Assembly: GCF_988243305.1 (NCBI RefSeq)
Contig: NZ_OZ547136.1
DNA: 64,000 bases
Direction: 5' to 3' (one strand)
The position numbers were made by a program, and so were the translations under genes. The notes beneath the pieces are model-generated. The model made no database searches and was not told the DNA's origin. It worked only from the letters and a program-made list of their open reading frames with translations. Positions 521 to 63,015 of this stretch are shown piece after piece. Within the stretch, counting starts at the first letter, position 1, and each line of letters begins with the position of its first letter.

Positions 521-522
521 AG

Positions 523-1611: not shown

Positions 1612-1617
1612 CAATGT

Positions 1618-1652
1618 TGCCGGATTCGACGCTTGACCGCATCTAATCCGGC
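1618..1652. repeat. REP-like palindromic unit (GCCGGAT...ATCCGGC)
   Basis: Inverted repeat gccggatt / aatccggc in the yeiI-nupX convergent gap. Confidence 0.5.
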
Positions 1653-1666
1653 TCATAAATTGCACA

Positions 1667-2917: not shown

Positions 2918-2942
2918 AGTTATTATCTCTTCATGTCATTTT

Positions 2943-2970
2943 GGGCGACGGCTTTCTGCCCATCAGAAAT
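2943..2970 (-). other. Conserved 28-nt leader element, copy 1 (rihB-nupX gap)
   Basis: 27/28 identical to 6172..6199; on the minus-strand RNA it can form a 5-bp stem GAYGG/CCGTC with loop GCAGAAAG. Confidence 0.4.
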
Positions 2971-3016
2971 AGCCGGGCCTGCATCTTGCGATACTGTCCC
3001 GGCTTGTTATCAACAC

Positions 3017-8066: not shown

Positions 8067-8133
8067 AGCACGTCCTCTGGTAAAAAATTACCACCCCTGT
8101 CAATCCACAAGAATATTGATACTGCAAAGACGG

Positions 8134-8169
8134 TTTAAACATGTGTTCATATTTAAACATGTGCTCATA
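8134..8169 (-). promoter_or_regulatory. Tandem 18-bp direct repeat in psuK promoter region (candidate operator)
   Basis: tttaaacatgtgttcata followed directly by tttaaacatgtgctcata (17/18), 68-103 nt upstream of the psuK ATG. Confidence 0.4.
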
Positions 8170-8304
8170 GTATGCATGTTTTACGTAAAGTAAATTACCG
8201 CCAGAGAGGCAAAATGGGCAGATTTGAGCAGGCTCACAAAACGCGATTAAATGCCTGAATTATAAAAACGGGGAATTTGTGACGGGATGCACAGAACAGG
8301 AACA

Positions 8305-8334
8305 ATAAAAAAGGGCAGAAATTAATCTGCCCTT
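8305..8334 (-). terminator. Intrinsic terminator downstream of fruA
   Basis: 9-bp perfect stem AAGGGCAGA/TCTGCCCTT followed on the minus strand by a T run. A second hairpin with no clear U tract lies at 8452..8476. Confidence 0.6.
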
Positions 8335-8489
8335 GAGGAAATAACCTTAGTGTTTGATGAAGGTTTCAGGTTTCTACTAAAAGATAAAACCATTTAAATT
8401 CATAAAATTACATTCACAAACCGGTCATTCTCTTTGCGCGCATCAAATGTTACAGGGCAGGAAATTTCTGCCCTGTAACACACCTTTTA

Positions 8490-10181: not shown

Positions 10182-10197
10182 TATGCCTCTCCTGCTG

Positions 10198-11136
10198 TCA
10201 GTTAAAAGGTTGTAAGTCGACGCGCGCCATCATTGCGGCCAACTGCGGACGATCGGTAATACCCACATTGCTTTGACTTACCGCCAGGGCTGCAACAGCT
10301 GTCGCCAGACGCAGTGTGTGTTCACTGGATTCACGCATCAGCAAGCCATAAATCAGGCCACCAACCATAGAATCCCCTGCGCCAACGGTGCTTACGACAT
10401 CGACTGACGGTGGTTTGGCGATCCATTCGCCGGAGGCATTAACCCAAAGCGCGCCTTCGGCACCCAGTGAAATAACGACATGCGCGATACCCTGTTCACG
10501 CAGCGCATGCGCAGCTTCAATCACATCTTTCATTTCAGGCAGTTTACGGCCCGCCCAGATTTCCAGCTCGCGGCGGTTAGGTTTCACCAGCCACGGTGCC
10601 GCTTTCAAACCTGCTACTAACGCTTCACGGCTACTATCAAAGATAATGCAAGGACACTGACTACGCAGGCGAGTCATCCAGTCGGTGAACGCTTCCGGGC
10701 TGACGCCTGACGGTAAGCTTCCGCTGACACAGACCATATCGAACTGACCGAGCCAGCTCAGAGAATCAGTCACAAAGCGTTCCCAGTCGGCGGGAGTGAC
10801 TTCAAAACCCGAGAAGTTGAAGTCGGTCACTTCGCCGTCTTTTTCCGTCAGCTTAACGTTAATTCGGGTGCGCCCCTGTACAACCTGGAAACGGTTGGCA
10901 ATGCCCAGCTCGCTGAACAGTTGCTGAAAACCATCCTGATTGTCTTTACCGAGGAAGCCGCCAACGGTGACATCAATTCCCAGGTCTTTTAATACTTTGG
11001 CCACGTTGATGCCTTTACCCGCCGCATGCAGACCGGTGGTTTTCACCAGGTTCACTTCGCCGCGTTCAATTTCCGGGCAGAAACCAACAAGGTCATAAGC
11101 CGGATTAAGGGTGATAGTAGCAACACGTCTGCTCAT
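10198..11136 (-). CDS. fruK: 1-phosphofructokinase
   Basis: 312-aa PfkB-family ORF; overlaps fruB by 1 nt. Confidence 0.95.
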   Translation of the reverse strand: MSRRVATITLNPAYDLVGFCPEIERGEVNLVKTTGLHAAGKGINVAKVLKDLGIDVTVGGFLGKDNQDGFQQLFSELGIANRFQVVQGRTRINVKLTEKDGEVTDFNFSGFEVTPADWERFVTDSLSWLGQFDMVCVSGSLPSGVSPEAFTDWMTRLRSQCPCIIFDSSREALVAGLKAAPWLVKPNRRELEIWAGRKLPEMKDVIEAAHALREQGIAHVVISLGAEGALWVNASGEWIAKPPSVDVVSTVGAGDSMVGGLIYGLLMRESSEHTLRLATAVAALAVSQSNVGITDRPQLAAMMARVDLQPFN

Positions 11137-12266
11137 TATGCGCCCTCCCCAAGACCAGCAGCGATAGCGTCGCCAATGGCTTTCAGCGCCTGTTCAGCAT
11201 CTGCACCCTGGGCGGTAAAGCGTAGGCGATGACCTTTCTTAACGCCAAGTGCCACAACTTTCATCAGACTACGTCCGTTTGCCGGTTTGCCGGTGCCATC
11301 AAGGTTTGTCACGGTAATATCACTGTTAAATTGTTTAATGGTATTGACCAGCATGGTACCTGGACGAGCATGCAGGCCGTGTTCATTGCGCACCACAAAC
11401 TCCGCGCTTAACACGTCGTCGGTCGGCGCATCATCGCTGGTCAGCAGCGCCAGCAACGTTGCCGCATCCGCTTTCAGCAAGCGGTCAGCTTTATTGTCGA
11501 GTAACAAATCAGCGAGACGCTTAAGAACCGCAATGGGCTGATCGTCATTCATCGCCACACTCACCAGCATGGCTGCCGTTTCGCCGTCCACATCAAAAGC
11601 ATTTGCCGCACGGCTTACCGCAATCGCGCTACGCAGATTGCCTTCGGCGCTATCGCTCAGCCAGATACCCTGTCCGAGGTTCAGCGGTTGTTCATTGATA
11701 GCTTTGGTGACGAAAGTGGCGTCAACTGCCCCCGCCTCTTTCAGACGAGCAGCGTTCAGCGCCTGAAGAGTCAGCAGATCGCTGGCGACGATATCCAGCG
11801 TCAGCATTTCGTTGTCGAGCTTCAGCTGCTCACTCTGCTTTTCGCCCATCAGCAATGCGCGAAGTTCTTCTGCTGTTGTTGCTGACTTCAGTTGTTCAGC
11901 AACGGAATCATCGCTCAGTACGTGGGTCAGCTGGCGTAGCAGGCCCAGATGTTCATCCGAGCTGGCAGCAATACCGATCGCCACGTACGCTACCTGGCCG
12001 TCACCCCAGGTGACGCCTTCCGGGAACTGAAATACCTGAACGCCGGTTTTCAGCACCTGATCGCGGGTGTCGGTAGTGCCGTGTGGAATAGCAATACCAT
12101 TGCCGAGGAACGTAGAGGTTTGCTGTTCGCGCGCCAGCATGCCATTGACGTAGCCTTCAGCTACATTACCGGCCTGCACCAGCGCCGCAGCGACATGGCG
12201 AATCGCCTCTTCTTTGTCTCCGGCCTTTTCGCCCGGATGGATGTCCTGTACGGATAACTGGAACAT
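11136..12266 (-). CDS. fruB: PTS fructose-specific EIIA / FPr fusion protein
   Basis: 376-aa ORF matching FruB. Confidence 0.95.
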
Positions 12267-12280
12267 AGTTCTCCTCTCTT

Positions 12281-12301
12281 GCTGAATTGAAACGATTCAG
12301 C
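12281..12301 (-). promoter_or_regulatory. Cra (FruR) operator in fruB leader
   Basis: Minus-strand GCTGAATCGTTTCAATTCAGC, a palindromic Cra-type site 15 nt upstream of the fruB ATG. Confidence 0.7.
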
Positions 12302-12352
12302 TTCTATGAGAAAAAAAGCGCCAACCTGGCTTAGGGTTAAAGACAAGATCGC

Positions 12353-12368
12353 GCTGAAACGTTTCAAG
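12353..12368 (-). promoter_or_regulatory. Cra (FruR) operator, second site
   Basis: GCTGAAACGTTTCAAG containing the perfect palindrome TGAAACGTTTCA. Confidence 0.7.
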
Positions 12369-12633
12369 AAAGCATAATACTTCTGTTTCAGCACGCAAGG
12401 AAAGCCGTAAAGTTATGAGCAAAAGTTTGATGTGCTGCACAATTTTTTGTCATTTTTCCTAATTGCTGATGGGAAAATCCGTTATCAGCAATTTCATTTC
12501 AGCAGCGTCAGCAGCCAATCAGCAACAGTGAAATGGCATTTTGATTATTCGTGGCGCTTTTGATTTCGCTGTCTGTTTATTTTCTGACAAGCAGCGTAAA
12601 CTCCGCGTCTTCCTCTTCCAGTGATCGACCAGC

Positions 12634-13815
12634 ATGCATAACTCCCCCGCAGTCTCCAGCGCGAAATCGTTTGACCTGACCTCGACGGCGTTTTTAATCG
12701 TTGCTTTTCTCACCGGTATTGCGGGCGCTCTGCAAACCCCGACACTCAGTATTTTTCTTACTGATGAAGTACATGCCCGCCCGGCGATGGTGGGATTCTT
12801 CTTTACCGGCAGCGCTGTCATTGGGATTCTGGTAAGTCAGTTTCTCGCCGGGCGCTCTGATAAGCGCGGCGATCGCAAATCGCTGATTGTCTTTTGCTGC
12901 CTGTTAGGCGTGCTGGCCTGCACTCTTTTTGCCTGGAATCGCAACTACTTTGTTTTGCTATTCGTTGGCGTCTTTCTTAGCAGCTTTGGCTCGACTGCTA
13001 ACCCGCAAATGTTTGCCCTCGCCCGTGAACATGCTGACAAAACCGGACGTGAAGCGGTGATGTTCAGCTCTTTTTTACGCGCTCAGGTTTCACTGGCATG
13101 GGTCATTGGCCCGCCGCTGGCTTATGCCTTAGCGATGGGTTTCAGCTTTACGGTAATGTATCTGAGCGCAGCGGTAGCGTTTATTGTTTGCGGCGTGATG
13201 GTGTGGCTGTTTTTACCGTCGATGCAAAAAGAACTTCCACTGGCGACCGGCACGGTTGAAGCGCCGCGCCGTAACCGTCGCGATACGCTGCTGCTGTTTG
13301 TCATTTGTACATTGATGTGGGGCTCGAACAGCCTGTACATCATCAACATGCCGCTATTTATTATCAACGAACTGCATCTTCCCGAGAAACTGGCCGGTGT
13401 GATGATGGGGACCGCCGCCGGGCTGGAAATCCCGACCATGTTGATTGCCGGATATTTCGCCAAACGTCTGGGTAAGCGTTTCTTAATGCGCGTTGCTGCC
13501 GTGGGTGGCGTCTGTTTTTACGCAGGAATGCTGATGGCGCATTCACCTGTCATTCTGTTGGGCTTGCAGCTGCTAAATGCTATTTTTATTGGCATTCTGG
13601 GTGGCATCGGGATGCTCTATTTTCAGGATTTGATGCCCGGTCAGGCAGGTTCAGCCACCACGCTCTATACCAACACTTCGCGCGTGGGCTGGATCATCGC
13701 AGGATCAGTGGCGGGCATCGTCGCCGAGATCTGGAATTATCACGCTGTGTTCTGGTTTGCGATGGTGATGATTATCGCCACTCTGTTTTGCTTACTACGG
13801 ATTAAAGATGTTTAA
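12634..13815 (+). CDS. setB: Sugar efflux transporter (MFS, SET family)
   Basis: 393-aa polytopic membrane ORF matching SetB. Confidence 0.9.
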
Positions 13816-14066
13816 GGCGCGGTCAGGATTTCCAGATCGATAAGCCAGGTCATCGCCTGCTGACGCGAGTTACCGCACATTTCAGCGCTGGCTTGTAAGC
13901 CTGCACAGACTTTCGGTCGCAGTGGCGAGGTGAAAATTTTACAGCGTTGCTGTTCATCAAGCTGAATGCAGGGCGTATTGGCGGGCTTGCCATCTGGCAT
14001 ACCGGGAATAGGGCTGGAAATTGAAGGGGCAGTGCAACACGCCCCGCAACCCGGACGGCATTCCAT
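13812..14066 (-). CDS. yeiW: Small cysteine-cluster protein (UPF0153 family)
   Basis: ORF track gives 128 aa from 14198; internal Met at 14066 gives the 84-aa Cys-rich protein ([11 protein letters not shown]...). 4-nt convergent overlap with setB. Confidence 0.75.
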
Positions 14067-14220
14067 ACGTTGTTCTCTTAAGGTTAACCACCGGATTGAT
14101 GAGCGCGCACAGTACCACCTTTTTTGCACCAGCAAAAGTGCGAATACCACTTGCCCGAAAGGCCCGTCGCGAGTACTTTGTCGCGATATTTTTGACATTT
14201 TCGACTACAGGAATTTTTCG

Positions 14221-14793
14221 ATGCCAAGAGCGAACGAAATTAAAAAAGGTATGGTACTGAATTACAACGGCAAACTGCTGCTGGTTAAGGATATTGATAT
14301 TCAGTCGCCCACTGCCCGCGGTGCCGCTACGCTGTACAAAATGCGTTTTTCTGATGTCCGTACCGGGCTGAAAGTAGAAGAGCGTTTCAAAGGAGATGAT
14401 ATCGTTGACACCGTGACGCTGACCCGCCGTTACGTTGACTTCTCCTATGTCGATGGCAACGAATATGTCTTTATGGATAAAGAAGACTATACCCCGTATA
14501 CCTTCACCAAAGATCAGATTGAAGAAGAGTTGCTGTTTATGCCAGAGGGCGGCATGCCGGACATGCAGGTGCTGACCTGGGACGGTCAACTGCTGGCGCT
14601 TGAGCTGCCGCAGACCGTTGATCTGGAAATCGTTGAAACCGCACCTGGCATCAAAGGGGCATCTGCCAGCGCCCGTAACAAACCGGCGACATTGAGCACT
14701 GGTCTGGTGATTCAGGTACCAGAATACTTAAGCCCGGGCGAAAAAATTCGTATCCATATCGAAGAACGCCGTTATATGGGTCGTGCTGACTAA
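14221..14793 (+). CDS. yeiP: Elongation factor P-like protein
   Basis: ORF track starts at 13966 (275 aa); ATG at 14221 gives the 190-aa EF-P paralog ([20 protein letters not shown]...). Confidence 0.9.
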
Positions 14794-17586: not shown

Positions 17587-17624
17587 GGTTGCCTGCGTTT
17601 TTCAGTAAGATAATTAGAGAAAAT

Positions 17625-18338
17625 ATGATTAAAAATTTGCCGCAAATAGTGTTGTTGAATATTGTCGGCCTCGCGCTGTTTCTTTCCTGGTATATACCCG
17701 TTAATCATGGATTCTGGTTGCCGATTGATGCGGATATTTTTTATTTCTTTAATCAGAAACTGGTCGAAAGTAAGGCCTTTTTGTGGCTGGTTGCATTGAC
17801 CAACAATCGCGCTTTCGACGGTTGTTCACTGCTGGCGATGGGAATGTTGATGCTGAGTTTCTGGCTGAAAGAACACGCCCCAGGCAGACGACGTATCGTG
17901 ATTATTGGTCTGGTCATGCTATTAACTGCAGTGGTATTAAACCAGCTGGGTCAGGCATTAATTCCTGTAAAACGGGCCAGCCCAACATTGACTTTTACCG
18001 ATATTAACCGCGTCAGCGAACTGCTCTCTGTTCCCACGAAAGATGCCTCACGAGATAGCTTTCCCGGCGATCACGGTATGATGCTGCTTATTTTTTCGGC
18101 ATTCATGTGGCGTTATTTCGGCAAAGTTGCAGGCCTTATCGCCCTTATTATTTTTGTGGTTTTTGCGTTTCCCAGAGTAATGATTGGCGCACACTGGTTT
18201 ACTGACATCATTGTCGGTTCGATGACCGTGATATTGATCGGTTTGCCCTGGGTGTTGCTGACGCCATTAAGTGATCGATTAATCACCTTTTTTGACAAAT
18301 CACTACCGGGAAAAAACAAACATTTCCAAAACAAATAA
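17625..18338 (+). CDS. lpxT: Lipid A 1-diphosphate synthase (PAP2 family)
   Basis: ORF track starts at 17589; ATG at 17625 (MIKNLPQIVLL...) gives 237 aa. Confidence 0.85.
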   Translation: MIKNLPQIVLLNIVGLALFLSWYIPVNHGFWLPIDADIFYFFNQKLVESKAFLWLVALTNNRAFDGCSLLAMGMLMLSFWLKEHAPGRRRIVIIGLVMLLTAVVLNQLGQALIPVKRASPTLTFTDINRVSELLSVPTKDASRDSFPGDHGMMLLIFSAFMWRYFGKVAGLIALIIFVVFAFPRVMIGAHWFTDIIVGSMTVILIGLPWVLLTPLSDRLITFFDKSLPGKNKHFQNK

Positions 18339-18749
18339 CTCACAGTAATTAACATCATCAGGGTTATTTTTATAGTGAGGATAATCCTGATGATGCGCAC
18401 CGTGCTTTCATCTATCGAACGCAAAAATCATTCTCTAAGTAAATGAATGGATTGCATGCGTTTCACTCAATCGTACTTTAATTGACCAATCCCGCTTATT
18501 AACTTTCTGTATCACTTTTTCTTATAAAAAATCATGTAAAACCGCTCGCCAAGACCGCACCAATCGGGTAATCTCGAACTCGTTTTGCCTCGGCGGTAGA
18601 TTATCCTCACAGCATATAATTTTGTGCGTTAGTCCACAGATTTGGCCTTAAGGAATTGTTTCAACATGCCCAGGTAATTAGTCTCGTGTCGCTTGGCATT
18701 TTTTTATAACGATATTTGTCGTTAAGGACTTCAAGGGAAAACAAACAAC

Positions 18750-19316
18750 ATGGTCAAATCTCAACCGATTTTGAGATATATCTTGCGCGGGATCCCCGCG
18801 ATTGCAGTAGCGGTTCTGCTTTCTGCATGTAGTGCAAATAACACCGCAAAGAATATGCATCCTGAGACACGTGCAGTGGGTAGTGAAACATCATCACTGC
18901 AAGCTTCTCAGGATGAATTTGAAAACCTGGTTCGTAATGTCGACGTAAAATCGCGAATTATGGATCAGTATGCTGACTGGAAAGGCGTACGCTATCGTCT
19001 GGGCGGCAGCACTAAAAAAGGTATCGATTGTTCTGGTTTCGTACAGCGTACATTCCGTGAGCAATTTGGCTTAGAACTTCCGCGTTCGACTTACGAACAG
19101 CAGGAAATGGGTAAATCTGTTTCCCGCAGTAATTTGCGTACGGGTGATTTAGTTCTGTTCCGTGCCGGTTCAACAGGACGCCATGTCGGTATTTATATCG
19201 GCAACAATCAGTTTGTCCATGCTTCCACCAGCAGTGGTGTTATTATTTCCAGCATGAATGAACCGTACTGGAAGAAGCGTTACAACGAAGCACGCCGGGT
19301 TCTCAGCCGCAGCTAA
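18750..19316 (+). CDS. mepS: Peptidoglycan DD-endopeptidase, NlpC/P60 lipoprotein
   Basis: 188-aa ORF with lipobox LLSAC and NlpC/P60 catalytic Cys (GIDCSGF). Confidence 0.95.
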
Positions 19317-19363
19317 TAAACCGTTTGGATGCAATCCCTTGGCTATCCTGACGAGTTAACTGA

Positions 19364-19390
19364 AAGCACTGCTTAGGCAGTGCTTTTTTG
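19364..19390 (+). terminator. Intrinsic terminator after mepS
   Basis: Stem AAGCACTGC/GCAGTGCTT with loop TTAGG, followed by a T run. Confidence 0.7.
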
Positions 19391-19496
19391 TTTTCATTCA
19401 TCAGAGAAAATGATGTTTCCGCGTCTTGATCCAGGCTATAGTCCGGTCATTGTTATCTTTTAAATGTTGTCGTAATTTCAGGAAATTAACGGAATC

Positions 19497-34940: not shown

Positions 34941-34969
34941 TTGCAATCGGTGTGGAAAACGGTAGTATT
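34941..34969 (+). promoter_or_regulatory. Candidate sigma-70 promoter for proL
   Basis: -35 TTGCAA (34941..34946), 17-nt spacer, -10 TAGTAT (34964..34969); tRNA 5' end at 34983. Confidence 0.45.
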
Positions 34970-34982
34970 AACAGCCACGAGT

Positions 34983-35059
34983 CGGCACGTAGCGCAGCCT
35001 GGTAGCGCACCGTCATGGGGTGTCGGGGGTCGGAGGTTCAAATCCTCTCGTGCCGACCA
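34983..35059 (+). tRNA. proL: tRNA-Pro (anticodon GGG)
   Basis: 77-nt cloverleaf: acceptor stem CGGCACG/CGTGCCG, anticodon loop with U33-GGG-G37, T-loop TTCAAAT, encoded CCA end. Confidence 0.95.
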
Positions 35060-35074
35060 AAAATCCCAAAAAAA

Positions 35075-35100
35075 ACCAACCGTAAAGGTTGGTTTTTTTA
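35075..35100. terminator. Bidirectional intrinsic terminator between proL and yejO
   Basis: Stem AACCAACC/GGTTGGTT flanked by an A run upstream and a T run downstream. Confidence 0.75.
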
Positions 35101-35160
35101 TATCTGCATTTAATTCGATAAACAGACCGCGACACATCACGGCCTGTTTATTTTCTGTTA

Positions 35161-37752
35161 TCAGAACGACCAGACCACACCCGCCTGAGTATTCCACGGT
35201 GATTCTACCCCTGCGCCATTGCCATAACTGACTGACAAATGACCGCTTAACGTCGGGGTAAACGATGACCTTATCCCAGCCTGATAAACGCCACGGGTTC
35301 CAGCCACATCATTATTAAATTTGCCATCGTCATTAACTTTCACCTGGTTAGAATCGGCGTATTCCTGACGCACGGCGGCTTTCAGCCAGGGTTCCAACGT
35401 CGTACCGTTTTGCAGGTCCATGTGATAGCTTACCGCCGTTCCCGCTTCAGCGCGTAATATCCGGGTATTTCCCACATCCGCGCGCATGCCATTTGATAAC
35501 GTGTAGTCCTGACCATCTGTGGTAAAGCCGGTAAAGGCCAGATAGGGTCTAACACTCCACAATCCGTCAACCCAACGGAACCCGCTCTCGACATGAGCAC
35601 CCGCGCCGTTACTATTGTAATCGCCAAACGCTGTTGCTCCATTACTCATCTTGCCATGGATGGTGTTGGCAAAACGGTCAACTTTCACCACTCCATCAAC
35701 ATAGGCACCGTTCTGATGCTCCCAACCGGCATAAGCCCCCAGGGTGTAGCTATCGATATTACCTTTGCCGCCGCGATCAAAACCAATATCAGAATGAGAG
35801 TAACCAAAGAACAAGCCGCGAATTGTGCTGCTTTCTTCACGGGAGAAACGGCTATCGATACCGAGCGTCAGGCCCGTCAATGTTTGCTCAAAGCCAGCTC
35901 CCGCATCAGTGGTCACGTTGTTGCGGGTGTTAATTGCCGAACTCCACATCGCCGTATCGTAACTAACGCCTTTTACGCTACCAAGACGCTCACGCACGGT
36001 GTCCAGTTCTGCATCAAATACCAGCGGTTGTGCTGCTGCCATGTTCAGCACATCAGTGGTTGAAGGGGTAATTTGCGCGCGATTCTCTGCGAGGCTCCAG
36101 CTATGGTTGCCATTATCCAGCAAGGTATATTCATACGTACCGATATCAACAACGCCTCCGGCATTGCCCAACGTAAATGCAGCATCACCGCCGCCCGTTG
36201 TTACCAGTGTAAGGCTATCTCCTGCTGCCGGGCTGGCACCGGTGTCCGTCACGAATATTTTGAAATCACCTGTTGCCTGACCGGTGACGTTGAGCTGATC
36301 GCTCTGATGATTAGCCATATCGGTACGCATATAAAAATTGCCATTTCCCGACAGGGTATTGGTGGTCAACGTAATGAAATTTTCCGCACTTGCCGTCACA
36401 GATGAACGAGTCACTGGCTCAGCCATCATAATCACATTTGCGCCAGACATCGCAAGGTTGGCTAAGTTGAGGCGAGTGTTTTGGTTCGTCGTAGTGATAT
36501 CGGCAATGATGGTCCATGCGCTATTTTCGAGCGAAACATCCGCTTTGCTGGTATCCACGGCACCATGCGTTCTAAAAGAAGCGCTATCAGAAACCACTAC
36601 CTTACCCACCAACATTGCGGGCGCATAATTTATTTGCGGCTTCATGACCTCAAGAATGCCATCATTCCCTCTGACTGAAACGTTAACCATTGTGCCAGCC
36701 CAGACGTTAGCGCGGCCATTGTTGATAACCATATTTTCAGAGATGGCTTTTGAGGAATACGTGATACTTCCATTCTGATCTGATCGACCGAGATCATATA
36801 CCGCATTTGCCTGCACTCTCGTACCAGTATCCTTTCCCAGCGATTGCATAGTGGCATGCTCATCAAGGATAGTATCAATGGCCTGCGTGTCCTCCATAAC
36901 AATGAGCCCGGAACCATCATCCAGTTCATAATTTTTTGACACACCATCTTTTATACTAAATTGGCCTTTACTGTTTGTACCACTCACTTCCAGCGCATTC
37001 GTTGAGACAATTAATTTTCCGCCTGCTTTTTTATCAACGCCAGTTGCAGTCCCGCCATCCATAACCTCCAGTAAGCCGCCACTATCCACAGTGGTATTAT
37101 AAGCGAAGTCATTTTCTTCAACTCGCAAACTTCCGCCGTTTTCCAACAGCATATTATTAGCAATACCATCCTTGATATCGAACTGACCGAGACGGTTTGT
37201 TCCGAATACCTCCATGGCCCGCGTGGTTGTTTTAATCGCACCGCCTGCTTTCTGATCTACCGCAAATGCTAATCCCCCCTCTTTAACCTCCAGTAATCCT
37301 CCCTTTTCGATAGCGGCAAAGACGGTAATCCCATCTTTTTCAATAATTAAGCGCCCGCCTTTAATGGTAGTATCATTCGCTGCGCCATAAACCTGTAGCA
37401 CACCATTATTGAGGGTAGTCTGGTTTGCCGCGCCACCCATTTGAACAATTTGATAACCGTCATTTAATACTGAGTATTCTGCGGTGCCATTCATTTCAAT
37501 GTACTGATACCCTCCGTTAATTTCAGTATTACTACTTACACCAAATTCTTTTATATGCTGTTCTCCGCCAGGATTGATTTTCGTATTATTGGCGGTCCCA
37601 TAAACCAGCTGGATATCTTTTTCCAGGACAACACCATCAACTGTCTCACCATACTCAACTGTTGATGCCAATGCTATGGGTGAATATAACGCTGTAGCCA
37701 CCAGAACAGATATTGCGGAACGACAAAGAGAAACAGAACCAGATTGATGCAT
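35161..37752 (-). CDS. yejO: Adhesin-like autotransporter (type Va secretion)
   Basis: 863-aa ORF with N-terminal signal peptide, Gly/Thr/Asn-rich repetitive passenger and C-terminal beta-barrel ending in an aromatic residue (...VVWSF). Appears intact; the region looks lower in GC than its flanks. Confidence 0.85.
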   Translation of the reverse strand: MHQSGSVSLCRSAISVLVATALYSPIALASTVEYGETVDGVVLEKDIQLVYGTANNTKINPGGEQHIKEFGVSSNTEINGGYQYIEMNGTAEYSVLNDGYQIVQMGGAANQTTLNNGVLQVYGAANDTTIKGGRLIIEKDGITVFAAIEKGGLLEVKEGGLAFAVDQKAGGAIKTTTRAMEVFGTNRLGQFDIKDGIANNMLLENGGSLRVEENDFAYNTTVDSGGLLEVMDGGTATGVDKKAGGKLIVSTNALEVSGTNSKGQFSIKDGVSKNYELDDGSGLIVMEDTQAIDTILDEHATMQSLGKDTGTRVQANAVYDLGRSDQNGSITYSSKAISENMVINNGRANVWAGTMVNVSVRGNDGILEVMKPQINYAPAMLVGKVVVSDSASFRTHGAVDTSKADVSLENSAWTIIADITTTNQNTRLNLANLAMSGANVIMMAEPVTRSSVTASAENFITLTTNTLSGNGNFYMRTDMANHQSDQLNVTGQATGDFKIFVTDTGASPAAGDSLTLVTTGGGDAAFTLGNAGGVVDIGTYEYTLLDNGNHSWSLAENRAQITPSTTDVLNMAAAQPLVFDAELDTVRERLGSVKGVSYDTAMWSSAINTRNNVTTDAGAGFEQTLTGLTLGIDSRFSREESSTIRGLFFGYSHSDIGFDRGGKGNIDSYTLGAYAGWEHQNGAYVDGVVKVDRFANTIHGKMSNGATAFGDYNSNGAGAHVESGFRWVDGLWSVRPYLAFTGFTTDGQDYTLSNGMRADVGNTRILRAEAGTAVSYHMDLQNGTTLEPWLKAAVRQEYADSNQVKVNDDGKFNNDVAGTRGVYQAGIRSSFTPTLSGHLSVSYGNGAGVESPWNTQAGVVWSF

Positions 37753-38071
37753 TGAGCTTTCATCCTATGAAATTAATTGCTGTTAAAAGCATTGGGTAAA
37801 GAAAATACCCATAGCTCCATACCCGGAGTCAGTTTTTAAAAACTGTTTAAAGAAATGCACAAGTATTGTGATTGATTTTTTAGTTGTTTTTCTTGATGAG
37901 AAGCTGATGCAAAATTCCGTCTTTATAATGAAAATGATGCCAAAGCGAACGACAAGGTTGTAGTTTTCACTACATGTCCATACATAAAATGGGGTAACAT
38001 TCACGCGCCTGGTAGCGTTACCAACGCTACGCTCAAACATAATGATTCTAATAAAACCTCAGGAGACTACT

Positions 38072-38719
38072 ATGCCTGAAGCAACGCCTTTTCAGGTGAT
38101 GATTGTGGATGATCATCCACTTATGCGACGCGGTGTTCGTCAGTTACTGGAGCTTGATCCTGGCTTTGAAGTGGTCGCCGAAGCGGGCGACGGCGCGAGC
38201 GCGATCGATCTGGCAAATAGACTGGATATCGACGTGATCTTGCTGGATCTCAATATGAAAGGTATGAGTGGCCTGGATACCCTCAATGCCTTGCGCAGGG
38301 ATGGCGTTACCGCGCAAATTATTATCCTGACCGTATCAGATGCCTCCAGCGATGTCTTTGCGCTGATAGACGCAGGCGCAGACGGTTATCTGTTGAAAGA
38401 CAGCGACCCGGAAGTGTTGCTGGAAGCGATTCGTGCCGGAGCGAAAGGCAGCAAAGTCTTTAGCGAACGCGTCAATCAGTACTTACGTGAACGTGAAATG
38501 TTTGGCGCGGAAGAAGATCCCTTCAGCGTGCTGACGGAGCGCGAGCTGGATGTTCTGCACGAGCTGGCACAGGGGCTGTCAAATAAACAGATTGCCTCGG
38601 TGTTGAATATTTCCGAGCAGACAGTAAAAGTACACATTCGCAATCTGCTGCGTAAACTCAATGTCCGCTCACGCGTGGCGGCCACCATTCTGTTCCTGCA
38701 ACAACGCGGGGCACAATAA
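38072..38719 (+). CDS. narP: Nitrate/nitrite response regulator
   Basis: ORF track starts at 38042; ATG at 38072 (MPEATPFQVMIVDDHP...) gives 215 aa with receiver and LuxR-type HTH domains. Confidence 0.95.
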   Translation: MPEATPFQVMIVDDHPLMRRGVRQLLELDPGFEVVAEAGDGASAIDLANRLDIDVILLDLNMKGMSGLDTLNALRRDGVTAQIIILTVSDASSDVFALIDAGADGYLLKDSDPEVLLEAIRAGAKGSKVFSERVNQYLREREMFGAEEDPFSVLTERELDVLHELAQGLSNKQIASVLNISEQTVKVHIRNLLRKLNVRSRVAATILFLQQRGAQ

Positions 38720-38722
38720 AAA

Positions 38723-38755
38723 CAGCCCGATGGCATCACCATCGGGCCTCTTTTT
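38723..38755. terminator. Bidirectional terminator between narP and ccmH
   Basis: Stem GCCCGATGG/CCATCGGGC with loop CATCAC, followed by CTCTTTTTATTT. Confidence 0.7.
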
Positions 38756-39806
38756 ATTTACTCTCCTGCGGCGACAAATGTTGCATCGCCTGCGCGATAC
38801 TACGTTCAATCACCGCACGGCGAGTATCGTTGGCAGGTAAGAGTTTCAACATCATCTCCCACGCGGCAACGGCTTCGCCAAATCGCTGCTGCTCAAAGGC
38901 GTTAAACGCATACATGCTTAACACACGAATATTGCTATGGTCCGTTCTCACCAACTGGCGCAGCAGTTCGCCGCCGAGGCGGTTGTCGTTGGGATCAGAT
39001 GAACGTGTCAACGCTTCAGCGTATCCCAGTGCAGCATCGCTGTTCTTCGGATCGAGGCGATACGCAGTAGCGTATGCATCGGTGGCGATACTGGCGTTAC
39101 CCAGCGCCAGGCCAACGCGGCCCAACATAATCCAGCCTTCTATATCTCCCGGATTTTTTTGCAGTTGAGTACGCATCCCCAGCGCCAGGCGCGACATCTC
39201 TTCTTCGTTGAGCGGATCGGCTTTCGGATCCAGCGCCCTGTCCAGTAACGCCGGAGCCTGTGCCGTGGCCTGCTGCCAGATTTTCACCTGCTGATAGTTG
39301 CCAGTCTGGTAGTAGCTGACGCCAGCCACAATTAACGCCACAACAATACCCGGCAGGTAAACAGCAAATCCGGCACGCTTACCTTCCGGCACGCTTTGTT
39401 CAGGAAACGCTTCCGGCACCACGCGTACCCGACGCCGCGAACGGGCGTAAATGACCCAACCGCCAATGCCAATAGCCACTACCGGAAGCACCCACAGCAG
39501 CACGGTCAGCGGCGTTAACGGCGGATCGTAAGTGACGAAGTTGCCGTAACGCGCCACCATATAATAGACAATCTCTTTCTTACTTTTACCTTCCTGCATC
39601 AGTTCATACACTTTCTGGCGCAGGTCGGTGGCAATCATCGAGTTGGAATCGGCAATGCTGTTGTTCTGGCATTTCGGGCAGCGTAGTTCTTCAGTGAGTT
39701 GCCGGAACTGCTGCTCCTGCGCTTCATCCTTAAACTGCAACACGTCGATGGTCGCCAGCGCTGAGCCGGAGATCATCAGCATCAGCACGCCCAATAAAAA
39801 CCTCAT
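38754..39806 (-). CDS. ccmH: Cytochrome c maturation protein CcmH
   Basis: 350-aa ORF with CxxC motif (LRCPKCQ) and TPR-like C-terminal region. Confidence 0.95.
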   Translation of the reverse strand: MRFLLGVLMLMISGSALATIDVLQFKDEAQEQQFRQLTEELRCPKCQNNSIADSNSMIATDLRQKVYELMQEGKSKKEIVYYMVARYGNFVTYDPPLTPLTVLLWVLPVVAIGIGGWVIYARSRRRVRVVPEAFPEQSVPEGKRAGFAVYLPGIVVALIVAGVSYYQTGNYQQVKIWQQATAQAPALLDRALDPKADPLNEEEMSRLALGMRTQLQKNPGDIEGWIMLGRVGLALGNASIATDAYATAYRLDPKNSDAALGYAEALTRSSDPNDNRLGGELLRQLVRTDHSNIRVLSMYAFNAFEQQRFGEAVAAWEMMLKLLPANDTRRAVIERSIAQAMQHLSPQESK

Positions 39807-40360
39807 TGTGCGGCCTCCTTACTGTATTTCTCCCACAGCGGCTTGATCTCTTCTTCCCAGACGCGAGGATTGAGATCGCCCGCATGGCGATAGCGAATGA
39901 TGCCGTTGCCGTCGATGAGGAACGTTTCTGGCGCGCCATAGACACCGAGATCCAGTCCTAACATGCCGTCGCCATCAAACAGGCTTAGTGCGTAAGGATT
40001 GCCCAGCTCTTTCAGCCAGCTGATTGCCTTCTGGCGATCGTCTTTATAGTTCATGCCGACCACGCGGATGCCCTGCGCAGAAAGCTGATTCAGATATTGA
40101 TGTTCCGCACGGCAGGTCGGACACCAGGTCGCCCAGACGTTAAGCAGCACTGGTTTGCCCTGAGTCAGCACATCCGCCTGATAAAACTGCCCCGGATTGT
40201 CCAGTGATTCGAGACGAAACTTCGGCACTGGCTTGCCAATGAGCGCCGATTCCAGATTGGTCGGATCATCCCCTTCGGCATTACGCGCCAGCTGCCACAG
40301 CAGCGCCGCGGCAATCGCCAGGAAGATAATCAACGGAATTAACAATACTTTGCGCTTCAT
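39803..40360 (-). CDS. ccmG: Thiol:disulfide interchange protein CcmG/DsbE
   Basis: 185-aa thioredoxin-fold ORF with WCPTC active site. Confidence 0.95.
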   Translation of the reverse strand: MKRKVLLIPLIIFLAIAAALLWQLARNAEGDDPTNLESALIGKPVPKFRLESLDNPGQFYQADVLTQGKPVLLNVWATWCPTCRAEHQYLNQLSAQGIRVVGMNYKDDRQKAISWLKELGNPYALSLFDGDGMLGLDLGVYGAPETFLIDGNGIIRYRHAGDLNPRVWEEEIKPLWEKYSKEAAQ

Positions 40361-58476: not shown

Positions 58477-59619
<1,143 letters not shown>

Positions 59620-59687
59620 TTATATGCCTTTATTTGCTTTTTTATGCCACTGCATACTGATTAACCCTCATTAATCAGTCGGCAAGT

Positions 59688-59790
59688 CCATTCTCCCCAA
59701 AAATGCAGAATAATCCAACACGAATATGATACTAAAACTTTTAAGATGTTTCATTTATCGCTATAGATGTTTCAAAATGTAAATGCAAGG
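59688..59790 (-). promoter_or_regulatory. ompC promoter with OmpR-binding boxes
   Basis: Minus strand: -35 TTGGAT, 17-nt spacer, -10 GAGAAT; upstream repeated TGAAACAT motifs (TTTACATTTTGAAACATCTA). Confidence 0.55.
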
Positions 59791-59938
59791 GAACTTTTTA
59801 AGATTATTGTGGAATGGCGAAATAAGCACCTAACATCAAGCAATAATAATTCAAGGTTAAAATCAATAACTTATTCTTAAGTATTTGACAGCACTGAATG
59901 TCAAAACAAAACCTTCACTCGCAACTAGAATAACTCCC

Positions 59939-60031
59939 GCTATCATCATTAACTTTATTTATTACCGTCATTCATTTCTGAATGTCTGTTTACCCCTATT
60001 TCAACCGGATGCCTCGCATCCGGTTTTTTTT
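59939..60031 (+). ncRNA. micF: MicF small regulatory RNA (antisense regulator of ompF)
   Basis: GCTATCATCATTAACTTTATTTATTACCGTCATTCATTTCTGAATGTCTGTTTACCCCTATTTCAACCGGATGCCTCGCATCCGGTTTTTTTT, divergent from ompC, ending in its own terminator hairpin and T run. Confidence 0.9.
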
Positions 60032-60342
60032 ACCCTTCTTTACACACTTTTCATTATTCTGTGCTACCACAGAAAAACTATAACGCTTGTTAACTATTTC
60101 ACAAATAATTAACATCAGCATAATTTCCAGCAATCTTCGTTTATTTGCAATTAATTTCTTTGGGCTTTTTGTAGGTTATTTGTACAGCAAAATGGCGCTT
60201 GTACATCTATTTCCCCCAATGCAGGATGATAAATATCACGGGAGAATAGAGAATCATCAATCAGGTAAGAGTCTGGAATTTCACACTGTACCCTTTATAC
60301 TGCCCTATCACTTCGCGAAGTTTTAACAGGTCATAAACACGA

Positions 60343-63015
60343 ATGCGTCAGAAAGAGACAACGGCCACGACCCGCTTTTCACTCCTACCGGGGAGCATTA
60401 CCCGCTTCTTTTTACTGTTGATCATTGTGTTACTGGTGACGATGGGGGTAATGGTACAAAGCGCCGTTAACGCCTGGCTGAAAGATAAAAGTTACCAGAT
60501 TGTCGACATTACCCACGCTATCCAAAAGCGCGTCGATACCTGGCGTTACGTGACCTGGCAGATCTACGACAACATTGCCGCGACGACCTCCCCCTCCTCC
60601 GGCGAAGGTTTACAAGAGACGCGCCTGAAACAGGATGTCTACTATCTGGAAAAACCACGCCGCAAAACGGAAGCGTTAATCTTTGGCTCTCACGACAACT
60701 CAACGCTTGAGATGACTCAACGGATGTCCACCTATCTGGACACATTGTGGGGCGCAGAAAATGTACCGTGGTCGATGTATTACCTGAATGGTCAGGATAA
60801 CAGTCTGGTGCTGATCTCAACCCTGCCCCTCAAAGATCTCACCTCCGGATTTAAAGAATCGACCGTCAGCGACATTGTTGATTCACGTCGTGCAGAGATG
60901 TTGCAACAGGCCAACGCCCTCGATGAACGCGAAAGCTTTTCTAACATGCGCCGCCTGGCCTGGCAGAACGGTCATTACTTTACCTTGCGTACCACCTTTA
61001 ACCAGCCGGGACATCTGGCAACGGTTGTGGCTTTTGATCTGCCGATTAATGATTTGATCCCACCGGGTATGCCGCTGGACAGTTTCCGCCTTGAGCCAGA
61101 CGCGACGGCAACGGGAAACAATGATAATGAGAAAGAAGGGACGGATAGCGTCAGTATCCACTTTAACAGTACGAAGATTGAAATCTCCTCGGCACTCAAC
61201 TCTACCGATATGCGCCTGGTCTGGCAGGTTCCTTATGGCACCTTATTGCTGGATACGTTGCAAAACATTCTGCTGCCACTGCTGCTGAATATCGGTTTGC
61301 TGGCGCTGGCGTTATTTGGCTATACCACATTCCGCCATTTCTCCAGCCGCAGTACAGAAAACGTCCCCAGCTCGGCGGTCAATAATGAATTGCGCATTTT
61401 ACGGGCAATCAATGAAGAGATAGTCTCACTGCTGCCGCTTGGCCTGCTGGTTCACGATCAGGAATCGAACCGCACTGTCATAAGTAACAAAATTGCCGAT
61501 CATTTGCTGCCGCATTTGAATCTGCAAAACATCACCACCATGGCGGAACAGCATCAGGGGATTATTCAGGCGACGATCAATAACGAGCTGTATGAGATCC
61601 GCATGTTCCGCAGCCAGGTCGCGCCGCGCACACAAATTTTCATTATTCGCGATCAGGATCGCGAAGTGCTGGTAAACAAGAAACTCAAGCAGGCGCAGCG
61701 TCTGTATGAGAAAAACCAGCAGGGGCGGATGACCTTTATGAAAAACATTGGCGATGCGCTGAAAGAACCTGCACAGTCCCTGGCGGAGAGCGCGGCTAAA
61801 CTCAACGCCCCGGAAAGCAAACAACTGGCGAATCAGGCAGATGTGCTGGTGCGGCTGGTCGATGAAATACAGTTAGCGAACATGCTTGCGGACGATAGCT
61901 GGAAAAGTGAGACGGTGCTGTTCTCTGTGCAGGATTTAATTGATGAAGTTGTGCCTTCAGTGTTGCCTGCCATCAAGCGTAAAGGTCTGCAACTGCTGAT
62001 TAACAATCATCTGAAAGCACACGATATGCGCCGCGGCGATCGCGATGCCTTACGACGTATTTTGCTGCTACTGATGCAATATGCCGTGACCTCAACGCAA
62101 TTGGGAAAAATCACCCTTGAGGTTGATCAGGATGAGTCCTCCGAAGACCGCCTGACGTTCCGCATTCTGGACACCGGAGAAGGCGTAAGCATTCATGAAA
62201 TGGATAATTTGCACTTCCCGTTTATCAACCAGACCCAAAACGATCGCTATGGCAAGGCGGACCCGCTGGCATTCTGGCTGAGCGATCAACTGGCGCGTAA
62301 ACTGGGCGGTCATTTAAACATCAAAACGCGGGATGGGCTTGGTACACGCTACTCTGTGCATATCAAAATGCTCGCAGCTGACCCGGAAGTTGAAGAGGAA
62401 GAAGAGCGTTTACTGGATGATGTCTGCGTAATGGTGGATGTTACTTCGGCAGAAATTCGGAATATTGTCACTCGCCAGTTAGAAAATTGGGGTGCAACCT
62501 GTATCACACCCGATGAAAGATTAATTAGTCAAGATTATGATATCTTTTTAACGGATAATCCGTCTAATCTTACTGCCTCTGGCTTGCTTTTAAGCGATGA
62601 TGAGTCTGGCGTACGGGAAATTGGGCCTGGTCAATTGTGCGTCAACTTCAATATGAGCAACGCTATGCAGGAAGCGGTCTTACAATTAATTGAAGTGCAA
62701 CTGGCGCAGGAAGAGGTGACAGAATCGCCTCTGGGCGGAGATGAAAATGCGCAACTCCATGCCAGCGGCTATTATGCGCTCTTTGTAGACACAGTACCGG
62801 ATGATGTTAAGAGGCTGTATACTGAAGCAGCAACCAGTGACTTTGCTGCGTTAGCCCAAACGGCTCATCGTCTTAAAGGCGTATTTGCCATGCTAAATCT
62901 GGTACCCGGCAAGCAGTTATGTGAAACGCTGGAACATCTGATTCGTGAGAAGGATGTTCCAGGAATAGAAAAATACATCAGCGACATTGACAGTTATGTC
63001 AAGAGCTTGCTGTAG
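60343..63015 (+). CDS. rcsD: Rcs phosphorelay phosphotransfer protein RcsD
   Basis: 890-aa ORF with N-terminal TM/periplasmic region and C-terminal HPt domain; immediately upstream of rcsB. Confidence 0.9.
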   Translation: MRQKETTATTRFSLLPGSITRFFLLLIIVLLVTMGVMVQSAVNAWLKDKSYQIVDITHAIQKRVDTWRYVTWQIYDNIAATTSPSSGEGLQETRLKQDVYYLEKPRRKTEALIFGSHDNSTLEMTQRMSTYLDTLWGAENVPWSMYYLNGQDNSLVLISTLPLKDLTSGFKESTVSDIVDSRRAEMLQQANALDERESFSNMRRLAWQNGHYFTLRTTFNQPGHLATVVAFDLPINDLIPPGMPLDSFRLEPDATATGNNDNEKEGTDSVSIHFNSTKIEISSALNSTDMRLVWQVPYGTLLLDTLQNILLPLLLNIGLLALALFGYTTFRHFSSRSTENVPSSAVNNELRILRAINEEIVSLLPLGLLVHDQESNRTVISNKIADHLLPHLNLQNITTMAEQHQGIIQATINNELYEIRMFRSQVAPRTQIFIIRDQDREVLVNKKLKQAQRLYEKNQQGRMTFMKNIGDALKEPAQSLAESAAKLNAPESKQLANQADVLVRLVDEIQLANMLADDSWKSETVLFSVQDLIDEVVPSVLPAIKRKGLQLLINNHLKAHDMRRGDRDALRRILLLLMQYAVTSTQLGKITLEVDQDESSEDRLTFRILDTGEGVSIHEMDNLHFPFINQTQNDRYGKADPLAFWLSDQLARKLGGHLNIKTRDGLGTRYSVHIKMLAADPEVEEEEERLLDDVCVMVDVTSAEIRNIVTRQLENWGATCITPDERLISQDYDIFLTDNPSNLTASGLLLSDDESGVREIGPGQLCVNFNMSNAMQEAVLQLIEVQLAQEEVTESPLGGDENAQLHASGYYALFVDTVPDDVKRLYTEAATSDFAALAQTAHRLKGVFAMLNLVPGKQLCETLEHLIREKDVPGIEKYISDIDSYVKSLL

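Follow-up and report, generated by a model that had tools for sequence, protein, structure and literature searches.

Among the autotransporters described so far, Ag43 (Flu), a self-associating protein of E. coli, is the one whose passenger best matches that of YejO (PDB 7KOH; sequence E = 5e-37, Foldseek E = 2e-22), and the two proteins share AIDA-type beta-helix units and the type Va layout, although their identity is only 24-28%, YejO is shorter, and its score against the NCBIfam Ag43 equivalog NF033177 (133.5 bits) falls below the cut-off of 1200. AIDA-I and TibA, both glycosylated adhesins, resemble YejO in carrying PF16168 AIDA repeats and the TIGR04415 "heptosyltransferase-target" strand-loop-strand repeat; TibA (4Q1Q) matches it with E = 2e-27, and the NCBIfam AIDA-I model NF033176 gives 73.1 bits, also below a cut-off of 1200. 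While AIDA-I/Aah and TibA/TibC have an adjacent heptosyltransferase gene (aah, tibC), yejO has none, its neighbors being proL and narP. Set beside the self-associating autotransporters, or SAAT group (Ag43, AIDA-I, TibA), YejO carries the AIDA repeats and lacks both an equivalog match and an adjacent heptosyltransferase gene. Further relatives are found in Bordetella: Vag8 (7AKV) matches residues 459-862 of YejO with E = 7e-36, and pertactin, Vag8, and BrkA all have a C-terminal passenger (Pertactin domain) and barrel like those of YejO, but their N-terminal passengers and genus differ, and the likeness does not go beyond the translocation unit.

Standard annotation and the literature already record yejO, the family it belongs to, where it lies, and its lesion in K-12. 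K-12 YejO (b2190, "adhesin-like autotransporter YejO", pseudogene) is the same gene in the same proL-yejO-narP position, with the same 319-bp gap, and differs from the present uninterrupted allele in bearing IS5K at codon 22. The tRNA neighborhood is also that of SPI-12, described as adjoining proL in Salmonella (PMC7143636), and of other proL-linked islands. However, SPI-12-type islands have phage or integrase genes and the yejO unit has none, and yejO lies outside the att site that proL elements use in Escherichia (PMC4924310).

The yejO locus and its K-12 counterpart

The window analyzed here, a stretch of 64,000 nt from E. coli, contains an intact yejO coding sequence of 863 aa (35161..37752, minus strand), as given by the open reading frame list and its translation. 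RefSeq annotation of near-identical genomes names this ORF yejO, its product shares 98% identity with a 16,859-sequence cluster labelled "autotransporter YejO [Escherichia coli]", and the locus is unbroken in alignment to IS-free RefSeq genomes at 99.4-99.6% identity. The gene order yejM / tRNA-Pro / yejO / narP / ccmH is common to the matching RefSeq annotations, and this conserved position, together with the high identity, places the protein in the YejO orthologous group. The feature is thus very probably the uninterrupted form of the chromosomal E. coli gene yejO, encoding a classical type Va autotransporter.

The tRNA-Pro gene with anticodon GGG (34983..35059, plus strand), found by ARAGORN and by the Rfam tRNA model (54.9 bits) and annotated as proL in MG1655, faces yejO with its 3' end (35059), the stop codon of yejO being 101 bp away. 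Between the two genes (35069..35099) lies a perfect hairpin of 13 bp with an A-run on one side and a T-run on the other, detected both by inverted-repeat search and as a terminator-like site; it has the appearance of a bidirectional intrinsic terminator, and it is kept in E. albertii, where it borders directly on a 10-nt scar left by the tRNA 3' end. Immediately 3' of the yejO stop codon stands a second inverted repeat with 15-nt arms, 87% complementary (35118..35151, minus strand), which is a candidate yejO terminator. On the other side of the gene, the divergent intergenic region to narP (37753..38071, 319 bp, 36.1% GC) is uninterrupted by alignment to MG1655, and the narP response regulator gene, placed by the annotation of matching genomes, starts at 38072 (38072..38719, plus strand). 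An Rfam scan of positions 33000-40000 (E <= 0.1) for sRNAs and tRNA remnants returned proL as its sole match and nothing in the yejO-narP gap, and a crude promoter scan of 37753-38071 detected no strong sigma-70 consensus, with fewer promoter-like sites than in shuffled sequence. The 863-aa ORF, its adjacency to proL, the 319-bp gap to narP, and the freedom of gap and ORF from any IS had all been claimed in an earlier note on this DNA, and all are borne out.

That note had also placed an IS5 copy between yejO and narP in K-12. An IS5 is indeed present at the K-12 locus and absent here, but it does not lie in the gap: in MG1655 the 1195-bp IS5K sits inside yejO, at codon 22 (Leu22/Tyr23), within the signal peptide, as read directly from the IS5 ends and flanks and as the MG1655 annotation agrees. 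Alignment to MG1655 puts the empty site, whose 4-bp target duplication is ATAA, at 37686..37689 of the window. The MG1655 gap is the same uninterrupted 319 bp, 98.7% identical to the present one with no gaps in the alignment, and MG1655 yejO minus the IS5 again gives an 863-aa ORF, whose protein is 97.5% identical to the present YejO. Nor does the uninterrupted locus have the special status implied for it, since the IS5K insertion site is unbroken in 5015 of the 5426 complete E. coli genomes compared, while the gene is split into two places at that site in about 368, both examples listed being K-12 strains. The uninterrupted locus is the norm, from which K-12 departs; the IS5K insertion is an event of the K-12 lineage in the signal-peptide codons, and other lineages lost yejO otherwise.

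Architecture and predicted fold of YejO

YejO has the composition of a type Va autotransporter, namely a Sec signal peptide, a beta-helical passenger with a pertactin-like region, and a C-terminal barrel, and all of these parts are present. The signal peptide (residues 1-29, MHQSGSVSLCRSAISVLVATALYSPIALA, followed by S; 37666..37752, minus strand) comprises a basic n-region (H2, R11), a hydrophobic core at residues 13-27, and A-L-A at 27-29, after which cleavage probably occurs; AlphaFold models this segment with low confidence, as a short helix at 14-21.

In the passenger, a tandem pair of 74-aa AIDA-type units (residues 151-224 and 225-298; 36859..37302, minus strand) is recognized by Pfam PF16168 AIDA, in two stretches with 172.6 bits, and by TIGR04415, as a repeat in three copies with 66.5 bits. 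The pair was found at protein level, where 38 of 74 residues agree; in DNA the units are only 54% identical, which is why Tandem Repeats Finder found no repeat in yejO. Comparison of passenger repeats between alleles shows that the number of units differs, an allele of 789 aa being short by exactly 222 bp, or one 74-aa unit. The units are followed by a hypervariable cassette defined by allele comparison (residues 299-430; 36463..36858, minus strand), within which identity over residues 361-430 falls to 67-70% between E. coli alleles that elsewhere share 95-99%, and to 26-28% with E. albertii. The passenger ends in a pertactin-like domain, the autochaperone region (residues 431-555; 36088..36462, minus strand), with 152.7 bits against PF03212 and a match to the pertactin structure 1DAB (E = 8.6e-18). 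The beta-barrel translocator (residues 602-841; 35230..35949, minus strand) scores 157.7 bits against PF03797 (cut-off 26) and matches the BrkA barrel 3QQ2 (E = 5e-19); TIGR01414 covers residues 456-863 with 372 bits (cut-off 16), and the C-terminus, ...VVWSF, has an aromatic last residue.

The predicted structure agrees in outline, with AlphaFold giving an all-beta solenoid with pLDDT above 90 for residues 30-445. The top Foldseek matches are the Ag43 structures 7KOH, 7KO9, and 4KH3 (E = 2e-22 to 6e-19), followed by those of TibA and pertactin, and the PDB matches by sequence are to Ag43 (5e-37), Vag8, TibA, the BrkA barrel, and pertactin. In the same model, built from a 12-sequence alignment, the barrel half has a pLDDT of about 23, too low for its strands to be counted, and the barrel assignment is based on HMM and sequence matches only.

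Proposed function, selection, and loss

By analogy with its relatives, YejO would be directed into the periplasm by its Sec signal peptide (residues 1-29), its C-terminal barrel (about residues 600-863) would enter the outer membrane, and the passenger (residues 30 to about 555) would be exposed on the cell surface as a right-handed beta-helix of AIDA-type units whose end is a pertactin-like autochaperone region. The homologs Ag43, TibA, and AIDA-I suggest that such a passenger mediates cell-cell or cell-surface adhesion, and an adhesin is the most likely role of the protein. With its ORF intact and the gene under purifying selection (dN/dS about 0.2), YejO may be a functional adhesin in this strain. 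The literature searched contained no report of an experimental function or expression of YejO in any strain, and for studies of that kind natural intact alleles like the present one, and not the K-12 allele, are the right starting material.

The selective constraint was estimated by comparison with the ortholog of E. albertii, which has 77% protein identity and adjoins narP and the ccm genes. Against it, dN/dS is 0.19 overall, 0.05 in the barrel, and 0.24 in the passenger; the comparison with K-12 gives 0.22. Such values indicate purifying selection on yejO over a long time. A scan of contigs with YejO matched E. albertii only; as its exact 8-mer patterns missed even the E. coli representative, the scan is uninformative on more distant genera.

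The gene or a remnant of it is present in 5424 of the 5426 genomes, and at least 80% of the yejO query is covered in one place in 4281 of them. Full-length uninterrupted yejO is kept in about two thirds, a figure estimated from evenly spaced rows of the 5426-genome match list. Deletion remnants account for about 21% of complete genomes, ST131 included (see also PMC5654935), and other genomes lost the gene through a 327-bp deletion, through frameshifts, or when IS1 and a P4-like element took its place. Two divergent alleles, P0074 and P0093 (57% and 78% identity, respectively), were considered as coming from other species and rejected, both being from E. coli; their loci carry internal deletions or frameshifts, with flanks 97-98% identical to the window.

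The frequent loss of yejO makes the gene dispensable, and it may be cryptic. The ORF would then be intact in this strain while the locus is silenced and heading to decay, with no working adhesin gained, a reading that we regard as somewhat improbable and yet to be taken seriously. It is favored by the recurrence of independent inactivation, through IS5, double deletions in ST131-like strains, the 327-bp deletion, frameshifts and, in addition, the IS1 plus P4-like replacement, as well as by the gap being without a sigma-70 consensus promoter in the crude scan and by the scarcity of the K-12 transcript, which is among the least often detected, appearing in 106 of 3376 RNA-seq sets (PMC10392735). 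Those expression data, however, stem from an IS5-disrupted allele and may not hold for intact ones, and both the low dN/dS (0.19-0.22 overall, 0.05 in the barrel) and the retention of the full-length locus in an estimated two thirds of complete genomes speak against a cryptic gene.

Origin of yejO and base composition of the locus

The location of yejO next to proL, together with its AT-richness, had been taken in the earlier note as typical of horizontally acquired DNA, and in its strongest form this would make yejO the cargo of a genomic island integrated at proL, with the AT-rich DNA as the foreign segment. We consider such an origin unlikely. It is true that yejO adjoins the 3' end of proL and that proL is a proven integration site: SPI-12 occupies it in Salmonella (PMC7143636), the gtrIC prophage of S. 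flexneri 1c is found there (PMC4924310), a P4-like element at proL replaces yejO in E. coli C21, and the proL neighborhood also holds an island with an att-like scar in E. albertii. In Escherichia and Shigella, however, the elements observed at this tRNA gene either sit between proL and yejO or, as in C21, replace yejO (PMC4924310), and none of them has yejO as cargo; because they insert between the two genes, yejO lies outside them.

Other signs of an island are missing from the locus. No integrase or mobility gene was found among the ORFs between proL and narP, where the Pfam matches are to autotransporter domains only and every ORF of at least 60 aa overlaps yejO or narP. No copy of the proL 3' end (25-mer, up to 3 mismatches) occurs elsewhere in the whole window, repeat finding in 34900-38200 revealed no att-type repeat, and there is no tRNA-like remnant. 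Since there is neither integrase nor att repeat, yejO is no recent island, and of the features of tRNA-linked islands it has the location at a tRNA 3' end without the mobility gene, the direct repeat, or the sporadic distribution. A recent proL island is refuted by the near-universal presence of the gene in E. coli and by its ortholog at the corresponding site in E. albertii, and yejO has stood between proL and narP since before the split of the two species. An ancient acquisition, fixed before the genus diversified, is at most what the island reading allows. What stands of the earlier suggestion is that proL is a real integration hotspot.

The base composition is deviant only in part. Positions 35161-38071 have 46.9% GC, and 6% of same-length windows in the 64 kb are equally low; yejO as a whole has 48.2% GC and a GC3 of 46.1% (z = -2.0), the fifth lowest among 50 genes, the background being the 50 ORFs of the window taken longest first and non-overlapping. 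The AT-richness claimed earlier holds for the 5' passenger half, codons 1-300 having 43.8% GC and a GC3 of 37.3%, and it does not hold for the barrel, the part nearest the tRNA, which is at background (52.1% GC in codons 556-863), nor for the gap, whose 36.1% GC falls inside the 30-46% range of the other intergenic regions of the window. Only the passenger half of the gene and its promoter region are AT-rich. The most AT-rich segment, 36250..38071, has 43.5% GC, and only 0.09% of same-length windows are as low, which favors a foreign segment, but core stretches are equally AT-rich, that from lpxT to mepS (17598-19419) being slightly lower at 43.1%. Codon adaptation is in the normal range: the CAI of yejO is 0.274 against a mean of 0.339 (z = -0.73), values that are approximate and use the E. 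coli weights of Sharp & Li (1987), and the likelihood of its synonymous choices has z = -1.4. Given the GC3 of 37% in codons 1-300 against a mean of 57.5% for the genes of the window, the gene may have been of foreign origin in the distant past. DNA as AT-rich as this is typical of surface-protein genes that are poorly expressed and probably silenced by H-NS.

Allelic variation and remaining explanations

The variation of yejO is compatible with antagonistic selection on an exposed target: residues 299-430 are hypervariable, the number of 74-aa units varies, and several independent events have cost strains the gene, namely the IS5 insertion, two different deletion patterns among ST131-like strains, the 327-bp deletion, and mobile-element replacement. 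That yejO is under such selection, for example as a phage receptor or as an immune or competitor target, appears to us quite improbable; if true, intact and decayed alleles would be alternative adaptive states and not stages of neutral decay. Very improbable, and largely refuted, is the idea that the low GC simply reflects the many N, K, I, T, and S residues of a repetitive passenger and not the history of the gene, for although GC2 is 38.7% in codons 1-300 against 48.7% in the barrel, the deficit is greatest at synonymous positions (GC3 of 37.3% against 57.5%) and GC1 is normal at 55%, so that amino-acid composition fails to explain most of it.

In E. albertii the GC content of the gene follows the same gradient, from 42% at the 5' end to 49% at the 3' end, and the AT-richness of the 5' half and promoter region is therefore a stable property of the gene.

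The yejO locus in Escherichia coli

The species of the window is Escherichia coli, and yejO is an already known gene that is found here in its commonest form. Its 863-aa ORF (35161..37752, minus strand; ORF listing and translation) lies between proL, a tRNA-Pro(GGG) gene (34983..35059, plus strand) detected by ARAGORN as the sole tRNA in the whole window and named from the MG1655 annotation, and narP, which starts at 38072 on the plus strand according to the annotation of matching genomes. Between proL and the yejO stop codon, 101 bp apart, lie a perfect 13-bp hairpin flanked by an A run and a T run (35069-35099) and a second hairpin (35118-35151); the yejO–narP gap measures 319 bp (37753..38071). 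A nucleotide search matched 34900-38800 in 5425/5426 complete E. coli genomes; those matching most closely had 99.4-99.6% identity and were annotated in the order yejM, tRNA-Pro, yejO, narP and ccmH. An earlier note, made from the sequence alone, agrees throughout with the ORF listing, ARAGORN and annotation in its coordinates, sizes and gene names, and in placing yejO next to proL.

In RefSeq, yejO of MG1655 (b2190) is a two-piece pseudogene divided by IS5K/insH8, and IS5 has been listed inside yejO in the same orientation (PMC11677980). In the alignment of the window with MG1655, the 1195-bp IS5K maps to window 37686-37689 with its target duplication, ATAA, seen directly at both IS ends; the site corresponds to coding nt 64-67 and falls at Leu22/Tyr23, within the signal peptide's hydrophobic core. 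K-12 thus does carry an IS5 at this locus that is absent from the window, as the earlier note had stated, but the position proposed there, between yejO and narP, was mistaken: the element interrupts the coding sequence, and the MG1655 gap is likewise an uninterrupted 319 bp, 98.7% identical to that of the window without gaps. Removal of the IS and one target copy from MG1655 yejO yields an intact 863-aa ORF, 97.5% identical to the window allele, whose own ORF and gap are, as had been noted, unbroken.

The intact ORF, which the earlier note set against K-12, is not unusual and represents the commonest state of the gene. A 201-bp probe spanning the IS5K site was unbroken in 5015/5426 complete E. 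coli genomes and split into two places in approximately 368, the two examples listed being K-12 strains; a whole-locus query found 4281 genomes with at least 80% covered in one place. Rough proportions, taken from 60 evenly spaced rows of the ranked whole-locus matches, are about two thirds for full-length, uninterrupted yejO, 7% for IS5-split K-12 types, 5% for an allele without 222 bp, and 20% for remnants with 41-46% coverage. These remnants, including that of ST131 (loci L003 and L005, from ST131 and EC21Z-147), are annotated pseudogenes with a common deletion in the barrel region (35191-35819, 629 bp) and an additional passenger deletion, either 36277-37280 or 36197-37350, a combination of shared and differing deletions that suggests stepwise decay within one lineage. 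Their finding in ST131 is consistent with the published absence of yejO from ST131 and its presence in ST38, ST405, and ST648 (PMC5654935). Further lesions comprise an internal deletion of 327 bp and the 222-bp deletion combined with a frameshift, and strain C21 has P4-like genes and IS1 in place of yejO (L006, the C21 locus, 1-3000). The C21 replacement comprises satellite-phage-like ash, icd-like, DUF4222 and primase-fragment genes with IS1A, and also takes 157 bp from the yejO end of the gap; from 37910 on, the sequence is homologous to the window again. Because independent losses are many, yejO is dispensable.

Origin and base composition

The position of yejO next to proL had also been read as a sign of horizontal origin, and in this the earlier note was right about the hotspot and wrong about a recent island. 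Mobile DNA does integrate at proL: Salmonella SPI-12 adjoins it (PMC7143636), S. flexneri 1c has a gtrIC prophage remnant between tRNA-Pro and yejO (PMC4924310), and the E. albertii type strain NBRC 107761 carries an island on the proL side of yejO (L007, its locus, 8681-14586) with genes for a DUF927 primase-like and a ProQ/FinO-family protein. At this island, where no tRNA was found within 6 kb, the 10 nt CTCTCGTGCC repeat the tRNA 3' end and adjoin the terminator-like hairpin that is conserved between E. albertii and the window, in the manner of an attR scar. In both S. flexneri and E. albertii, the mobile DNA sits between proL and yejO, and yejO therefore lies outside the element. In E. 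albertii, the yejO ortholog (862 aa) has 77% identity, is located next to narP and the ccm genes, and has the same GC gradient; between the window and E. albertii dS is 0.84 for yejO versus 0.36-0.69 for flanking genes. Recent acquisition is excluded, since the yejO unit has no integrase (ORF listing), no second copy of the tRNA 3' end (repeat and mismatch-tolerant search) and no tRNA-like remnant (Rfam scan), the locus is near-universal (matched in 5424/5426 genomes), and the E. albertii ortholog occupies the same place. An ancient acquisition of yejO, before the E. coli/E. albertii split, is possible. A genome-collection scan with YejO matched E. albertii alone, and is uninformative on an empty site in other genera.

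The claim that yejO and the gap are clearly more AT-rich than their flanks is real in part. GC content is 46.9% over the span 35161-38071, a level matched or undercut by 6% of windows of that length across the 64 kb; yejO itself has 48.2% GC and 46.1% GC3, against means of 52.5% and 57.5% for the 49 other ORFs of at least 150 aa (GC3 z = -2.0, fifth lowest among 50 ORFs). The deficit forms a gradient, fading from the 5' to the 3' end of yejO, with 43.8% GC and 37.3% GC3 in codons 1-300, where the claim stands, 48.8% GC in codons 301-555, and 52.1%, the background value, in codons 556-863 (linker and barrel, proL side). Amino-acid composition does not explain it, because the deficit is largest at third codon positions. 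The stretch 36250..38071 (43.5% GC) ranks second among the AT-richest 1.8-kb stretches of the window, behind the core lpxT-mepS region (17598-19419, 43.1%), and the gap (36.1%) falls within the 30-46% spanned by other intergenic regions. Two other core-genome stretches, 58537-60358 (43.9%) and 6600-8421 (44.5%), have an AT content similar to that of the 5' half of yejO. Codon adaptation is not distinctive: the CAI, an approximate value, is 0.274 versus a mean of 0.339 (z = -0.73), and the likelihood of the synonymous codon choice under the window's pooled usage gives z = -1.4.

Protein architecture and possible role

YejO was shown to have the architecture of a type Va autotransporter. Pfam assigns AIDA repeats in two stretches (172.6 bits), a Pertactin domain (residues 431-555) and an Autotransporter beta-domain (602-841), and NCBIfam TIGR01414 (456-863, 372 bits) and three TIGR04415 strand-loop-strand repeats; the N-terminus, MHQSGSVSLCRSAISVLVATALYSPIALA/S, resembles a Sec signal peptide as read from the sequence, and the C-terminus is VVWSF. 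YejO most likely follows the standard route of this type, in which the protein is exported via Sec, its barrel inserts into the outer membrane and its beta-helical passenger is displayed on the surface. AlphaFold, with a 12-sequence alignment, modeled residues 30-445 as a beta-solenoid (pLDDT >90), and its model of residues 506-863 is unusable (pLDDT ~23). Among solved structures, sequence comparison gives Ag43 (E = 5e-37), Vag8, TibA, the BrkA barrel and pertactin as relatives. Ag43 structures are also nearest to the passenger by Foldseek (E = 2e-22 to 6e-19), followed by TibA and pertactin, yet identity to Ag43 is 24-28%, and NCBIfam scores fall far under the equivalog cut-offs for Ag43, AIDA-I and BafA.

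The passenger varies across E. coli in the number of its repeats. Two tandem 74-aa AIDA units, at residues 151-224 and 225-298 (36859-37302), share 38/74 identical residues, and the 222 bp absent from the 789-aa allele (L004, e.g., WCHEC115106) are precisely one unit. These are followed by a hypervariable cassette at residues 299-430 (36463-36858): at residues 361-430, identity between E. coli alleles drops to 67-70%, from 95-99% over the remainder of the protein, and is 26-28% for E. albertii, and dS at residues 301-555 is 1.41, roughly twice the value elsewhere in yejO (about 0.7). Taken together, the cassette, the differing numbers of repeats and the recurring losses could reflect diversifying or antagonistic selection acting on an exposed protein, or else recombinational mosaicism.

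Against E. albertii, dN/dS of yejO is 0.19 overall, 0.05 in the barrel and 0.24 in the passenger; the value against K-12 is 0.22, and flanking housekeeping genes have 0.02-0.05. These ratios point to a barrel under purifying selection and a more loosely constrained passenger, as for a working surface protein. The intact yejO is likely able to make a surface autotransporter, for which an adhesive or self-associating role may be inferred from its relatives Ag43, TibA and AIDA-I; in the searched literature we found no experimental test of this role. The K-12 transcript is among those detected most rarely (PMC10392735), and the allele behind these expression data is the IS5-disrupted one. That YejO is expressed and acts as an adhesin in the window strain, a possibility raised by the earlier note, is unproven.

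Other features of the intergenic regions

Most of the yejO–narP gap is occupied by an 85-aa ATG ORF (37783-38040, minus strand), unannotated in matching genomes and probably spurious. The gap also shares an 11-nt exact match, GCCTGGTAGCG, with the proL D-arm (34997-35007; 38007-38030 upstream of narP), for which approximately 0.01 would be expected by chance, and an Rfam scan found no tRNA-like remnant there. The gap copy overlaps an 8-3-8 palindrome, GTAGCGTT-ACC-AACGCTAC, located 41 nt upstream of the ATG of narP; the palindrome may act as a regulator site or form a hairpin in the 5'-UTR. Downstream, the narP–ccmH spacer is 34 bp with one hairpin (38720-38753) in the window, in the comparison genome GMF065 and in an ST131 genome, and approximately 211 bp in MG1655, C21 and E. 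albertii. As read in the MG1655 sequence (L001, its locus, 7149-7358), the extra DNA contains a BIME of two REP units as well as a second hairpin copy. The difference is a REP insertion/deletion polymorphism.
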